Assembly (NCBI GenBank): GCA_963758525.1
Contig: CAVWVQ010000003.1
Coordinates: 2,144,001 to 2,208,000, forward strand
Origin: an uncultured Phycisphaerales bacterium
Lineage (GTDB): Bacteria > Planctomycetota > Phycisphaerae > Tepidisphaerales > Tepidisphaeraceae
Direction: 5' to 3'
DNA: 64,000 nt
Below the pieces are notes generated by a model, which worked only from the letters and a program-made list of their open reading frames with translations, searched no databases and was not told where the DNA came from. The position numbers were made by a program, and so were the translations under genes. Shown here one piece after another: positions 271-61,754 of this stretch; position 1 is the first letter of the stretch; every line of letters begins with the position of its first letter.

Positions 271-589
271 TTACTCGATAGTGACGATGTAGCTCACCAT
301 CCACAATTCCAACTGCTCAAGCTTGGTCTTCCATCGACGCTTGAACGCCTTCATACAAGCCGGTTTTTCGGCGTGTCTGGAACATCGATCACAAGAAGAA
401 CAAGGTTATCCGGTAGACGCTCACACCCTGCTGCCAATGACCTTCAATGCGTTGGGTTTCGTAGCTCGCCGCCCCGAATTAACCAACGATCTCAAGCACC
501 GCATCTGCCAGCCATTCGGCAGGAATATCGCGGCCATCATTAAACTGGAGCGGGAGCAGCACCTCGAATCGCCGCCACTCGCTGCTCAT
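271..589 (-). pseudogene. Small hypothetical protein B (homolog of 58294..58608), interrupted
   Basis: Manual translation MSSEWRRFEVLLPLQFNDGRDIPAEWLADAVLEIVG*FGAASYETQRIEGHWQQGVSVYR/DNLVLLVIDVPDTPKNRL/MKAFKRRWKTKLEQLELWMVSYIVTIE; in-frame TAA at 479-481 and two frameshifts. Confidence 0.75.
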
Positions 590-762
590 AGCTCGCCTTG
601 CCCTTCACCGTGAATGGAATGTTCTCCCGAGCCAGCGCCTCTAACGCCGCTTCCGGCACCAGGTGTACGCCTTTTTTCAAGCACCCGCCCTGAGAATCGC
701 CCCAACAGGTATGCCAGCCCCCGCCGTTCGGTCGCACGATCTGGAAAGGTGATCATGATCAT
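540..762 (-). pseudogene. Small hypothetical protein A (homolog of 58110..58337), frameshifted; overlaps protein B by 50 nt
   Basis: MIMITFPDRATERRGLAYLLGRFSGRVLEK/GVHLVPEAALEALARENIPFTVKGKASYEQRVAAIRGAAPAPV; frameshift at T6 run near 672-677. Confidence 0.65.
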
Positions 763-2509: not shown

Positions 2510-4651
2510 TCACGCCGATCGTTTTGCCTTGGCGCGTTCGTCCAGTGCTTCCAGCGAGATGGCCGGAGCGCCCTCGTGCTCGGCGAGGAACTTTTGTGCC
2601 GCAGCTGCGGTCAGGGGGCGACTGAAGAAGAACCCTTGCGCGTATTCGCATTCCATCGCCTGCAGCATGATCGCCTGGTCAATCGTTTCGATTCCTTCAG
2701 CCACCAGACGGATGTCGAGGTTGCGCGCGAGGGCGACGATGGCATGCACGACGGCGGCGTAGTCGCGCCGGTCAGTCATGAAACGCACGAAGGTCCGGTC
2801 GATCTTCAAGCCGCTCAGCGGCAGCCGATGCAGATAGCTCAGCGATGAATAGCCGGTGCCGAAATCGTCCATGGAGATGCGAACGCCCAGCCCGCGGAGG
2901 TGTTCGAGAACCGGGATCGATGCATCCGCATTGCGGATCATCACCGTTTCTGTCACTTCGAGCGTAATCGACGCGGGGTCCGCTCCGGCGCGGCGGATGA
3001 TCTGCTCGACGTTCTGCACCAGGTCGGGGACCAGCAGTTGCTTGGCCGAGAGATTCACGCTCATCGACAACCCGGGAATTCCCGGGTGGCGGCCCTGCCA
3101 TTCGACCAACTGCCGGCACGCCTCGGCCAAGACCCAGTAGCCGATCGGGACGATCGTCCCGGTTTCCTCGCTGATCGGGATGAACTCATTGGGCGGGACG
3201 AGCCCGCGCACGGGATGATTCCATCGCACCAGCGCCTCGAAGCCATGCAGGGCGTTGGTCGCCAGCGAGATGATCGGCTGATAGTGCAACACCAGCTCGC
3301 CCCGGTCCGCAGCCTGACGAAGTTCGCCTTCCATCTCCAGGCGGCCGAGAATTTCCTCGTGCATCTTGCGGTCGAACATCACGTACCGCGCCTTGCCGGC
3401 GTGCTTGGCGTGATACATTGCGGTGTCGGCGTCGCGGAGCATCTCCTCGGCGCGTTTGTATCCGACGGCACTGGTGGTGATGCCGATGCTGACGGTGCTG
3501 GTCACCTTGTGACCCTTCAGATCGTATGTTTCGCTGAGGATGTCCAGCAACCTGGCGGCAACGTCGCCCGCGTCTTTCGGGTCGCGCAGATCGTCGGCGA
3601 GGATGACGAATTCATCGCCCCCCAGCCGCGCGGCGGTATTGCGCTCGGGGGTGCCGACCGAATCGGTGGAGCGGAGCGACTTTTGCAGGCGATGCGCGAT
3701 TTCGACCAGGAGCGCGTCGCCGACGTCGTGACCCAGGCTGTCATTGACCAGCTTGAAGCGGTCGAAGTCCAGGAAGAGAACGGCGAAGTGATAGGCGGGA
3801 TTGCGGCGCTGGCGCAGCAGCCCGTGCGCCAGTCGATCCTGCAGCAGGGCGCGGTTGGGAAGACCGGTGAGCTTGTCGTGCAGGGCGGCGTTCTCCGCCG
3901 ATTCCTTCGCTTCGCGCAGCAATTCCTCGCGCGCAGCCGCTCGGTCATCTCGGCGCGCAGCGCGTCATTGGTCCTGGAGAGCGCCACGGTTCGTTCGACC
4001 ACCTGCGATTCCAGCTCGATATGCGCCCGCTCGAGCACCTCGATCGCCCGCTTTCGGTCGGTGATGTCAAAAGCAATCCCCTGCAAGAACTGCGGAACGC
4101 CCCGCTCATCGCGGATCAACTGACATTCGCCATGCACCCATACGATGTGCCCGTCACGAGCCAGCAACCGATACTCCGAGCGGAAGTGGATTCCCGCGGC
4201 GCAGGTCTGTGCAAACTCGGCGCCCCACCGCTGGCGGTCATCAGGATGGACCCGGTTGTACCAGAGGAACGGATTGTCGAGCCACTCCTGCTGGGAAAAC
4301 CCCAGCAACTGCTCGATCTGCGGGCTGACGTAAAATTCCGTCTGCGATCCGTCGAGCGAGGCGAGAAACGTGACGGCTGGAATCTTCTCGACCAGCGCGA
4401 TATCGCAGCTCCGCGTTTTGCAGACGCATGTCGCCCGGCTCGCCCGAGCCAGTCGCGCGCGGCACGATTAACTGCTCAACCGCCTGCCCTGAGCCGGCGT
4501 TCAAATCGATCATCCCCTTGAGAATCAGCTCGGCCTGCTCGGGGGACAGTTCCGACTGGGTCGTGGAAAAGGCCGTCAGGGCCTCGTGCGCGGAGCGCCC
4601 GAGGCCTTCGTTCTCTGGCGCGGGATGGTGATTTATGCCGGTCTTCGCCAT
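2510..4651 (-). CDS. PAS/PAC-GGDEF-EAL diguanylate cyclase/phosphodiesterase, split by frameshifts near 4395 and 3930
   Basis: PAS ([12 protein letters not shown]...VHPDDR...[11 protein letters not shown]), GGDEF ([27 protein letters not shown]), EAL ([22 protein letters not shown]) across ORFs 4241..4651, 3517..4308, 2510..3922. Confidence 0.92.
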
Positions 4652-57904: not shown

Positions 57905-58109
57905 CGCCCTCCGTTCATTCATTCAGACGCCAGCCTCGCTGGCAAAGCTTTTCGCGGAACTGCGGAAGGCCTGTTCAGCGAAAAACGGGGACTTGCGTGG
58001 CGCAGAACGCTGGTCCCAATGAGGGCGCTGATTTGCCGCCCGGTGGTTCCGCCTCTACAATCGGCTGTTGGGAAAGTTGCGCGGCGGCGCCGCAGTCGAG
58101 AGTTCTCCG

Positions 58110-58337
58110 ATGCAGATGGTGAAAATTCGGATCATTGATGGCGAGAAGCGAGCTGACGCGCTCCTGGCGTTGATGCGCCGTGGCCGGGTTGTCTGCTTCC
58201 CCGATAACGTCTTCATCGTGCCTGAGCCAGGACTGACCCTTCTCCAGGGGATGGCGGTTTCATTTGAAGAGCTTGGCCGGGGGGGAATCGATTATGCCGA
58301 GAAGGCGTTACGAGATTCTGTTACCGCTCCGGCATAA
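58110..58337 (+). CDS. Small hypothetical protein A (75 aa) of overlapping two-gene module
   Basis: MQMVKIRIIDGEKRADALLALMRRGRVVCFPDNVFIVPEPGLTLL...; similar to 540..762. Confidence 0.7.
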   Translation: MQMVKIRIIDGEKRADALLALMRRGRVVCFPDNVFIVPEPGLTLLQGMAVSFEELGRGGIDYAEKALRDSVTAPA

Positions 58338-58608
58338 CGATGGCCGTCCCATGGAGGCCGAAAGGTTCGATCAGACCCGCCAAGATTTGATTCTCCGCTT
58401 TGGAGCTGTCTCTTTTCATCCCAATTCGATTTTTGGCATTTGGGTCCACGAGGGAACCCGATACGAGGATGAACTGATCCGCTTGGTGGTCGATGTCGAA
58501 GATGCGCCGGAAACCCGGCGGTATTTTGTTGAGTGGAAGCCAACGCTTTTGGAGCGGTTCGAACAGATCGAGATCTATATTGCCTCGTACCCCATCGATA
58601 TCCTGTAG
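58294..58608 (+). CDS. Small hypothetical protein B (104 aa) of overlapping two-gene module
   Basis: MPRRRYEILLPLRHNDG...RFGAVS...GIW...VDVED...RFEQIEIY; similar to 271..589. Confidence 0.82.
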   Translation: MPRRRYEILLPLRHNDGRPMEAERFDQTRQDLILRFGAVSFHPNSIFGIWVHEGTRYEDELIRLVVDVEDAPETRRYFVEWKPTLLERFEQIEIYIASYPIDIL

Positions 58609-59070: not shown

Positions 59071-60177
59071 GTGCAGCGACGAACGAAATACATTCACCAA
59101 CGGGCCGATTGGCCCCAGCTCACCTGGGAAGACGCCGCGCTCTCTTCGGTGCTGGCGGACGTACGCCATCAGCAGGGCCGGCTGCTGGGCAGGATGGAGG
59201 CGCTGGGTTTTGATCTTCAGTCGGAAGCAAGCCTTGCGGTCATCACCAGCGACGTCGTGAAGTCGTCGGCCATTGAAGGGGAGATTTTCGACTCCGACGA
59301 AGTGCGGTCGTCCATCGCCCGGAGGCTCGGATTGCCGGAGGCAGGACTGAAAAAGGGGTCGCGCGATGTTGAGGGCGTGGTCGAGATGATGCTTGATGCG
59401 ACGCAGCGCTTCCACTCGCCGCTGACCAAAAGACGGCTGTTCGCCTGGCACGCCTCGCTGTTCCCGACCGCCCGCACCGGCATGGGGCGCATCGCGGTCG
59501 GAGGGTGGCGGAGCGGGCCGATGCAGGTGATCTCAGGGCGTTACGGGCGCGAGACGGTGCATTTCGAAGCGCCCGAGGCAGGCCGTCTGGAAGCGGAAAT
59601 GAGGCGATTCATTGACTGGTTCAATCTCCCGAGTGCAACCGACCCGGTTCTCCAAGCTGGGATCGCGCATTTTTGGTTCGTGACGATCCACCCCTTCGAG
59701 GACGGCAACGGGCGCATCGCCCGGGCCATCGCCGACATGGCGCTGGCACGCGCCGACCGAACCACGAACCGCTTCTACAGCATGTCGTCTGAAATTGAGG
59801 CTCGGCGGAAGGACTACTACTTCCAACTCGAAGCTTCCCAGCGTGGCGATGTGAATATCACACGATGGTTGGGCTGGTTCCTGGCCTGCCTCGGCAGCGC
59901 CATCAATAGCGCCGAACAAACGCTCGCAGCCGTGCAGTACAAGGCCAGGTTGTGGCAGCGCATCAACCGCGCTCCGGTGAACGATCGGCAGCGGCTGGTC
60001 ATCAACCGCATGCTCAACGGGTTTGTCGGCTTCCTCTCAACCTCGAAGTATGCCAAGCTTGCAAAATGTTCGACAGACACGGCTCTGCGCGACATCGGGG
60101 AACTGCTCGAGCGCGGCATCCTCGTGCAAAATTCCGGCGGCGGGCGAAGCACGAGCTATCGGCTTGCCGAGGTGTGA
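59071..60177 (+). CDS. Fic family protein with N-terminal DUF4172 and C-terminal HTH
   Basis: YIHQRADWP, SSAIEGE, HPFEDGNGRIAR, KCSTDTALRDI, GGRSTSY. Confidence 0.93.
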   Translation: MQRRTKYIHQRADWPQLTWEDAALSSVLADVRHQQGRLLGRMEALGFDLQSEASLAVITSDVVKSSAIEGEIFDSDEVRSSIARRLGLPEAGLKKGSRDVEGVVEMMLDATQRFHSPLTKRRLFAWHASLFPTARTGMGRIAVGGWRSGPMQVISGRYGRETVHFEAPEAGRLEAEMRRFIDWFNLPSATDPVLQAGIAHFWFVTIHPFEDGNGRIARAIADMALARADRTTNRFYSMSSEIEARRKDYYFQLEASQRGDVNITRWLGWFLACLGSAINSAEQTLAAVQYKARLWQRINRAPVNDRQRLVINRMLNGFVGFLSTSKYAKLAKCSTDTALRDIGELLERGILVQNSGGGRSTSYRLAEV

Positions 60178-60273: not shown

Positions 60274-61754
60274 TCATGGGCCGCCTTCGCTGAGCATCTT
60301 CACGTGATTCAAGACTCTGATGTGAATCCGGTGAATGATGAAATCCGACCAGAGCCGCCAGTATTCGGCCGGCCACATGTGATGCTGATACCACGTGGTG
60401 CCCTCGAGACGGGTGCGGCCCCCGGGGAGTGCGACCAGGCGAAATTGGCCGCCTTGCGACACCAAAAAATTCTCCAGGTGCGGCGGGTGGATGTCGTGCC
60501 ATGGGCTCCATTCCTTCATCGGTGGCGGATTCGACGCGACATCGAATTTGAGCAACTTCGGCTCGTCCCAGACGCGGATCGGTTCGACGAACGGGCCGGT
60601 GGAAAAGACGCAAAAACGCACCGCGCCCACGCCATGGCCGCTGATCTGTGCGCGGATCGGGTAGGCAACGCCGGTGCGGAAGATCCAGTCGGTGGGCGGG
60701 GGAATTTCCCGGAACCCGATCACATTCGCCCAGACGCGGCTCGGCGGCGCTTCGATTTCGACGGACGTGGTGACCGAATAGACCGGTGCCGGCGGTTGGG
60801 TCAACCGCTCGGCGCCGGTAAATAGCGGAAGGAAGCACAGCATGAGCAGCACGACGCGGCGCGCGTCCGCAATCCCGGTCGGGCGCATTGCGGCCATCGA
60901 CGCGCCAACCGCGGCTCCGAGCATCGCGAGCGGGTACGCCAGGGCGCAGCCATGATCAGGCATCCCGCCCCTTCAAATGCGATGAACAGGAGCAACACGC
61001 CGTAAGCGGTGAGGGACAGACACGCGACGCCGATGCACCCTCGCAGCCCGCGCGGCGTACGAGCCGCATAGAGCGCGGAAGACATCAACCCGATTGCGAA
61101 CGGCACCCCGACAAAGACGCCCCACCCATAATTCAAGAACCAGTGGATCGAAACGAACGTCGCCGCAAGTGCGATCGGCACCGGCAGCAATATCGCCAGT
61201 GCCTTGGCCGCGCCCGGATCAACCGGCAGAATGCGGTCGAACCACGGCTCCCGTTGCAAGGCATCGCGGCCGTAGTCGAGTACCGGTGCGACTGCGCCCC
61301 CAGAAGCGCAAGGCGCCTCGTTCCCAGGGGCGACCGCAGCGAGCGGAGGATCACGACGACTCGGCGTGCCGACCAGAACGACAAAGAGCGCGAGATTGAT
61401 CCCCGGGACGAAAAACAGCAGCGTCCAACCGGCGGACAAGCCGACCGCACGCAATCGCATCGCCGTCAGAGAGACCCCCGCGTAGATGAACGGAAGCGCG
61501 ATCAGGAGCATCGTGAGATAGAACGCCCGGTCGCCTCCACCGCCGAACAGCAGCGCCAACGAAGATCCCGGGGCAATATATTCTGCCGGCGACCACGACC
61601 GCCCGAACACCAGCCGCGACATCGACCAATCCGTCAGAAACTTCACGGCCAGCAGAACTGCGCCGAACGCGACATAGGGAATGCGGTCAATCGCTCCTCT
61701 GCAACGCAACAGCTTTCCGAGCGGGATGATCATCGCGCGGGATTGTAGCGGCAC
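60274..61754 (-). CDS. DUF805-containing membrane protein fused to SRPBCC domain; frameshift near 60945
   Basis: GAIDR..Y, RLRAVG, FVPGIN; EGAGCLIMAAP; TTSVEIEAPPSRVW, GVGAVRFCVFSTGPFVEPI. Confidence 0.78.

Follow-up and report, generated by a model that had tools for sequence, protein, structure and literature searches.

The window analysed here is a 64,000-nucleotide (nt) stretch from an uncultured Phycisphaerales bacterium (GenBank assembly GCA_963758525.1, contig CAVWVQ010000003.1, positions 2,144,001 to 2,208,000 of the forward strand). At 58110-58608 it carries two small overlapping genes, A and B. We refer to this pair as copy 2, and it is the sole intact copy of the module in this genome among the four copies compared. 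Its features are as follows.

58110..58337, forward strand: gene A, 75 amino acids (aa), modelled as a small ferredoxin-like fold with a C-terminal helix; likely the antitoxin.
58294..58608, forward strand: gene B, 104 aa, predicted PII-type fold, an apparent relative of S-adenosylmethionine (SAM) lyases and DUF3574 with residues S40, G48, W50, D59 and Q91; likely the toxin.
58294..58337, forward strand: dual-coding overlap of 44 nt, with A residues 62-75 lying over B residues 1-15, both in the predicted A-B interface.
58033..58061, forward strand: sigma70-like promoter match TTGCCG-17-TACAAT, 48 nt 5' of gene A; a consensus match only.
58280..58287, forward strand: purine-rich Shine-Dalgarno-like stretch for B, within Gly codons of A.

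A sequence-only reading of the window had described the two proteins, their 44-nt overlap and a start codon of B (ATG) formed within a TAT-G of A, and all of these were verified; B is read in the +1 frame relative to A. The TAT-G junction, which the same reading took to be conserved, is present at copy 2 and is not universal, occurring at 32 of the 70 loci whose start could be located (a count made by eye). The promoter scan of the copy 2 region returned two sigma70-like sites, compared with a mean of 0.3 in shuffled sequence. The layout is that of a type II toxin-antitoxin (TA) module: small, adjacent, co-oriented genes with the putative antitoxin first and a promoter-like site.

Linkage between the genes was assessed in the best 80 of 138 genomic relatives of B. 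By their record titles, these B-found loci span Planctomycetota, Nitrospirota, Verrucomicrobiota, Acidobacteriota, Latescibacterota, Chloroflexota, Proteobacteria and others. A adjoins B in 76 of the 80 and overlaps it in 75, with a constant frame offset; the overlap measures 44 nt in 35 loci and ranges from 38 to 92 nt. The sequence-only reading had named B homologues that mostly lack A as evidence against the pair, and this is borne out in part, in that some distant B relatives occur without A. The third base of B codon 6 (Tyr or Phe) is C at 72 of 72 loci with an overlap, compared with 298 of 584 Tyr/Phe codons elsewhere in B. A T at this position would create a TGA stop in A, and the single TTT belongs to the locus where A stops before B. 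Therefore, the tail of A is held open by selection. The tail had been thought to be dictated by B, which is true of its amino acids, but the constraint is mutual, with the synonymous codons of B fixed so that A stays open. At 42 of 61 loci, B is preceded by a Shine-Dalgarno-like match of at least 4 nt that lies within A, a figure that drops to 7 of 61 in control stretches. Of 60 related loci, 16 have a sigma70-like match at most 100 nt 5' of A (2.4 in shuffles). By eye, a -10-like element ends no more than about 6-10 nt from the A start at L026, L031, L035, L037, L039, L071, L076, L081 and L085; the upstream sequences suggest that A transcripts may be leaderless in many copies.

The surroundings of the pair are not conserved. 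Scanning 150 of the 153 nearest open reading frames (ORFs), which came from greedy ORF calls that are in some cases in the wrong frame, revealed no conserved third gene. The flanks are mostly housekeeping genes (gidA, lepA, dnaJ), and one copy sits inside a nuo operon. Presence is patchy: among 301 genomes of the host phylum, ten have a B-like match (two of these being DUF3574) and four an A-like match. The module can also expand within a genome. The 9.1-Mb genome G304 (loci L216-L256) holds 19 A-like and 20 B-like matches, all highly diverged, with an A-like gene directly 5' of B at 17 of 19 B loci. The overlap in these copies is reduced to a few bases, and the long overlap is therefore a mark of the main clade only. 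Some A-like genes in G304 are doubled or orphan, and one is followed directly by a small gene and a PIN-like ORF (named by eye). Our data demonstrate that A and B are coupled and conserved and that together they make up a self-contained cassette, which has been inserted at unrelated sites.

The pair is found in many soil and groundwater bacteria. Near homologues number 438 for B and 376 for A, the nearest B homologues come from Planctomycetota metagenome-assembled genomes, and at an E value of 0.001 or lower B has 1,395 representatives. Measured against the window copy, the ratio of nonsynonymous to synonymous substitution rates ranges from 0.06 to 0.23 in the non-overlapping part of A, where 8 of 20 pairs were unsaturated, and from 0.06 to 0.27 in B, where 5 of 17 were. 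Judged by these ratios, the non-overlapping parts of both genes are under purifying selection, and the possibility, raised in the sequence-only reading, that A lacks such selection is not borne out. A is nevertheless poorly conserved in sequence, with Arg68 as its sole invariant residue. Neither protein has a curated-level match in Pfam, NCBIfam, PHROGs or PADLOC. The PHROGs scan returned only the unnamed phrog_3543, matched by 14 of 99 B relatives, and the PADLOC scan of eight proteins gave a single weak match. ESM Atlas matches for both proteins are clusters without a name, DUF3574 appearing at rank 19 among those of B. No A-B fusion occurs among the 15 longer homologue matches inspected. 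The tree of B relatives, built on 61 rows and 106 columns, has poor resolution and gives no order of events. Four of the B relatives (P0255, P0271, P0326 and P0248) have hydrophobic N-terminal extensions resembling signal sequences or membrane anchors.

The two genes differ in how they are lost. A gene was scored as intact when, within one frame, the profile covered 58 or more of the 75 positions in A, or 90 or more of the 104 in B. In the B-found sample (n = 80), 65 loci have both genes intact, nine have intact A with broken B, two have both broken and none has broken A with intact B; the remainder are three loci without A and one split by a transposase insertion. The lesions in the nine broken B copies lie at different places, and the 9:0 asymmetry has a binomial P of 0.008-0.011, depending on the target lengths. 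B loss may be undercounted here because four loci were scored as intact B without a clear start. The A-found sample, drawn from metagenomes (n = 75), is biased towards intact A by the way it was assembled; within it, 20 loci have both genes intact, 22 have B broken and 12 lack B (34 with intact A and B lost), six have A broken, all with B broken or absent, and 15 lie at contig edges. With near-duplicates merged, B is lost in 29 clusters, intact in 19 and mixed in one. Broken A beside intact B was found in neither sample (9:0 and 34:0). In these samples, B is lost while A stays and not the reverse, which is the pattern expected if B is a toxin and A its antitoxin; the exceptions are three close and several distant B relatives without any A.

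The other copies in this genome show the same one-sided loss of B. Copy 1 lies at the opposite end of the window.

540..762, reverse strand: copy 1 gene A, frameshifted; likely pseudogene.
271..589, reverse strand: copy 1 gene B, with an in-frame stop and two frameshifts; likely pseudogene.

Copy 1 (762-271) is a homologous module, and both its 50-nt overlap and the motifs that the sequence-only reading had found common to the two copies were verified. It had been taken for an intact paralogue with an A of about 75 aa and a B of about 105 aa, but it encodes neither. Comparison with two intact relatives (68% identical) reveals one base too many near 680 in A and bases missing near 411 and 358 in B, and B is further interrupted by an in-frame TAA at 481-479. 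The frameshift background of the assembly is 5 in 45.9 kb across 40 conserved loci, one of the five being a wrong-frame match to the module itself; against it, three indels in the 492 nt of copy 1 have a P of about 2e-5. Copy 1 is therefore likely a true pseudogene, its indel density far exceeding the background of assembly error. Three public DNA runs, none of them spanning copy 1, yielded one short related contig, which points to a relative whose A lacks the additional base. Nor is the module present only twice: two further remnants bring the copies to four. The third (C1:~296323-296000) has an intact A and a frameshifted, truncated B, and the fourth (C3:2766503-2766324) a shortened A and no B. 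Copy 1 is followed, 17 nt further on, by the start of a GrpB-family gene (3-254), likewise on the reverse strand.

The AlphaFold 2 model of B has a predicted local distance difference test (pLDDT) score of 95.6. Its strands 40-52 and 55-69 are joined by a 2-residue hairpin turn, and the model has no long T-loop. In the VIA fold search, the top match to B is the SAM lyase Svi3-3 (PDB 6ZM9; Z 9.7, root-mean-square deviation 2.8, 102 residues aligned), with which CutA, CPII and SbtB tie; the SAM-AMP lyase (9GAB) scores Z 8.0. A profile comparison links B to DUF3574 (probability 94.9, E 4.6e-8), and a 14-sequence DUF3574 profile searched against the PDB finds Svi3-3 first (E 0.0066), aligning G56, Y58, E69, Q104 and E105. 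This two-step sequence bridge resolves the tie toward Svi3-3, and the earlier guess that B is DUF3574/PII-like proved right. By transitive alignment, Svi3-3 residues S50, G56, Y58, E69, S71, I77, Q104 and E105 correspond to S40, G48, W50, D59, L61, D67, Q91 and I92 of B, the equivalence of D59 and E69 coming from sequence alignments and not from residue-level superposition. In 55 paired B proteins, these site residues are kept in 51 (S/T40), 55 (G48), 54 (W50), 53 (D59, with Glu in two) and 54 (Q91), and G48, W50, D59, K82, Q91, P11 and F36 persist in copies down to 22% identity. Svi3-3 is a trimer with its active site between subunits. According to the accessible text of the Svi3-3 study (PMC7877911), G56, E69 and Q104 are strictly conserved, and the ligand contacts S50, E69, S71, I77 and Q104 are contributed by two subunits. 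Judged from these alignments, B is a relative of the SAM lyases that departs from them at the catalytic Glu. The Cas2/VapD-like RNase alternative proposed for B in the sequence-only reading is unsupported, because the conserved residues map to the SAM-lyase ligand cleft.

A is modelled as a small ferredoxin-like domain plus a C-terminal helix (pLDDT 83), and its fold search gave no clear structural family (best Z 6.3). A 3:3 A-B model built from paired alignments scores 0.85, compared with 0.00 for the best of three controls. Of 157 solved complexes, 116 attain this mark, as do 2 of 215 mismatched pairs; both counts are only roughly valid for this model, in which three copies were imposed and only the A-B interface was scored. 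The runs share at least 85% of their contacts, with partner pLDDT of at least 86. The most confidently predicted contacts place A 15-19 and 27-31 against B 22-41, S40 included; further interface residues are B 9-17, 60-62, 67-69 and 91-95 and A 58-71, and D59 is not among them. Since the interface includes ligand-contact equivalents from both B subunits, A would cap the presumed substrate cleft of B.

Taken together, we propose that A and B form a type II TA module in which the SAM-lyase-like B acts on SAM or a close adenosyl compound and A neutralises it. We assign this reading a probability of about 0.45. The TA logic by itself is probable and, granting that logic, a SAM-type target is moderately favoured. 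A wider formulation, of an undescribed and widespread TA family in which a domesticated SAM-lyase-type toxin relies on an Asp-based site to deplete SAM, or a signal made from it, and a ferredoxin-fold antitoxin caps the toxin, is somewhat more tentative than the proposal itself. Under our proposal, free B would lower SAM or a SAM-like compound by cleaving or sequestering it, which may lead to growth arrest. Three A would bind three B, the A strand 27-31 and helix 15-19 being predicted to pack on B helix 22-33 and strand 37-41, with the A tail 58-71 predicted to touch B as well. The B residues 40, 61, 67 and 91, which A is predicted to touch, would, by the transitive alignment, be the counterparts of the Svi3-3 ligand contacts S50, S71, I77 and Q104. 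T3 SAMase is toxic when expressed at higher level, as stated in the accessible text of PMC7877911. The TA idea of the sequence-only reading gains from co-occurrence, one-sided loss, copy expansion, a promoter-like site of the pair's own and a confident complex model, and is set back by stand-alone B relatives.

Several observations weigh against this proposal. DUF3240 (Z 9.0) and CutA (Z 8.9) tie with Svi3-3 to within one Z unit, and Foldseek places CutA first and Svi3-3 third for B. Searching B or its profiles directly against the PDB gave no match at all, SAM lyases included, and the comparison of B with the T3 SAMase family is not significant (E 0.26). The position of the catalytic Glu69 is Asp in 53 of 55 paired B proteins and in 83 of 99 B relatives, and Glu in only 2 and 5, respectively; replacing this residue in Svi3-3 (E69Q or E69A) lowers activity 1500-4500-fold, according to the same portion of PMC7877911. 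Position 92, equivalent to Glu105, is variable, an Asp or Glu following one residue later in 54 of 55. On the genomic side, known TA or defence genes flank only about 5 of the 80 loci, inverted repeats 5' of A are not clearly enriched (13 of 60 loci compared with 8 in shuffled sequence), and the fold search, Pfam and NCBIfam revealed no recognisable DNA-binding domain in A. Autoregulation through DNA binding by the antitoxin is common in type II TA systems, though not universal. The construction of the A-found sample also detracts from its 34:0 count, and kin among the loci do not count as independent. Finally, B-type proteins occur alone: three close relatives (Chloroflexota and Actinomycetota) have an intact B in genomes that show no A, the phylum sample holds four stand-alone B-like matches, and six stand-alone B loci lie on rhizobial and Deinococcus plasmids (L258-L263).

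Of the stand-alone proteins, the 12 placed in the tree all retain G, W, D and Q. The three A-less close relatives group with the window clade (97/89 in the tree). This A-less sister clade (L029:4001-4321, L067:3995-4312 and L068:4001-4321) carries a CxxC insertion in helix 1, the predicted A-binding helix, which fits the complex model and yet shows that B-type proteins can exist without A. A redox or metal switch might replace A in this subclade. Neighbours of the plasmid genes include DUF4142, DUF2934, YetF, SDR and ligD, and one B is fused to a KTSC-annotated part. This genome has a further B-like gene without A, which matches phrog_3543 and carries the G-W-D-Q pattern (L257:1492-1890, reverse strand; G000:C3, about 1631300-1631700). 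It lies directly 3' of an N6/N4 DNA methyltransferase and 5' of a 310-aa gene of no known function; this arrangement is a single case, in this genome.

Of the alternatives, the best supported keeps the TA pair and changes the target: B would no longer be a lyase and would instead bind a host protein, such as SAM synthase, or act on another nucleotide or a modified RNA. All the genomic and complex evidence for a TA pair applies equally to it, and the replacement of Glu by Asp at the catalytic position counts in its favour. The core clade has extra conserved charged residues (R5, E7, N15, D16, R63, D67, K82 and R88), and, in the accessible part of bioRxiv 10.1101/2023.02.27.530186, a catalytically dead T3 SAMase still binds MetK. 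However, the most deeply conserved residues are the ligand-site equivalents, whereas the extra charged residues vary in diverged copies, and the L257 gene, with its G-W-D-Q pattern, adjoins a DNA methyltransferase. We consider a non-lyase toxin unlikely, though it deserves serious attention.

A non-toxic PII-like sensor, in which an adenosyl ligand on B switches its binding to A and A regulates something else, is less likely again. The ties of CutA, CPII and SbtB with the lyase in the fold search, the intact stand-alone B relatives and the hydrophobic N-terminal extensions of some distant ones all agree with a sensor. Such a role, however, leaves unexplained the one-sided loss, the 19 loci in one genome, the patchy presence (10 of 301) and the lack of a conserved target gene, and B has a 2-residue hairpin turn and not a long T-loop. 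We regard as very improbable that B is a regulated anti-restriction or defence enzyme which transiently lowers SAM against restriction or phage DNA modification, with A as a brake. Phage SAM lyases act in this way, according to the accessible text of PMC7877911 and bioRxiv 10.1101/2023.02.27.530186, the B fold resembles many small uncharacterised phage proteins, and 14 of 99 B relatives match phrog_3543. However, B homologues are absent from 192 candidate viral-contig stretches and from annotated phages, PADLOC gave only its one weak match, the flanks are mostly housekeeping, and the idea overlaps our SAM-toxin proposal in its chemistry. Reverse polarity, with A as a Cas2/VapD-like nuclease toxin and B as its antitoxin, merits almost no credence: A is ferredoxin-like and a Cas2 chain (Z 6.0) is level with the top rows of its fold search, but 43 loci keep intact A while B is broken or absent, and the single invariant residue of A, R68, is dictated by the overlap.

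B shares with Svi3-3 and T3 SAMase the PII-type ferredoxin fold, a short hairpin loop and equivalents of S50, G56, Y58 and Q104; it differs in having Asp for Glu69, no fixed Glu105, a chromosomal bacterial location and a dedicated predicted binding partner. DUF3574 (PF12098) is homologous by profile and gives weak matches in 12 of 99 B relatives (best E 0.0024), but it keeps R-E and Q-E-S and forms its own branch (100/100), and B falls below the Pfam cut-off. Bacterial DUF3574 proteins (L126-L139) themselves retain every residue of the SAM lyase set (G, aromatic, E, Q-E), match Svi3-3 by sequence and are likely SAM lyases. The SAM-AMP lyase of CorA-associated type III CRISPR is likewise bacterial, with the same fold and acidic and Gln site residues; unlike B, it has Glu71 and sits in CRISPR loci, whereas no cas gene occurs in the scanned A-B flanks. 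The accessible sections of its description (PMC12255297) indicate that the PII-type lyase fold can change substrate. PF23780 matches 2 of 99 B relatives weakly; it gave no match in 251 genomes and none in the controls either, so that its absence from those genomes carries no weight.

VapWD and VapXD, as far as the accessible text of PMC11980593 describes them, also pair a ferredoxin-fold toxin, found stand-alone as well, with an antitoxin, which in the case of VapW has a ferredoxin fold. VapD is a precedent for toxin families that combine stand-alone members with such an antitoxin. VapD is, however, a nuclease acting as a dimer, whereas the closest folds of B are PII-type trimers. The Pfam and NCBIfam scans gave no VapD/Cas2 link for the A or B alignments; A has no conserved Asp corresponding to the catalytic Asp7-type residue, and the strand-1 acid of B is Glu7, which varies in diverged copies. 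CutA and the PII-like proteins share the B fold (Z 8-9), but at 6-17% identity; B has no long T-loop, which in canonical PII exceeds 20 residues (accessible text of PMC12255297), and it sits in a mobile two-gene cassette. Our literature search, whose coverage left out most subscription journals, found no description of the A-B pair or of a SAM-lyase TA toxin.

Elsewhere in the window, a Fic/DUF4172 gene with its own sigma70-like promoter lies at 59071-60177 on the forward strand, 463 nt 3' of copy 2. Two reverse-strand genes named by eye, a GGDEF/EAL-like signalling gene at 2510-4308 and a membrane-plus-SRPBCC-like gene at 60274-61754, each appear to be split by a single frameshift, probably an assembly error.

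Known SAM lyases serve phages as weapons against restriction and BREX or, in one CRISPR type, clear a signal. If our proposal is true, destruction of the cofactor SAM would be added as a toxin mechanism, an Asp-type branch of the SAM lyase superfamily would be defined, and A would be, within reach of the literature searched, the first dedicated protein inhibitor for this class. The 44-nt overlap of the main clade encodes parts of both sides of the predicted interface, and the two genes would therefore be locked together at the DNA level. The module also offers a way into some 1,400 protein clusters that lack annotation and, if B is toxic via SAM, bacteria would have turned a phage's trick on themselves.
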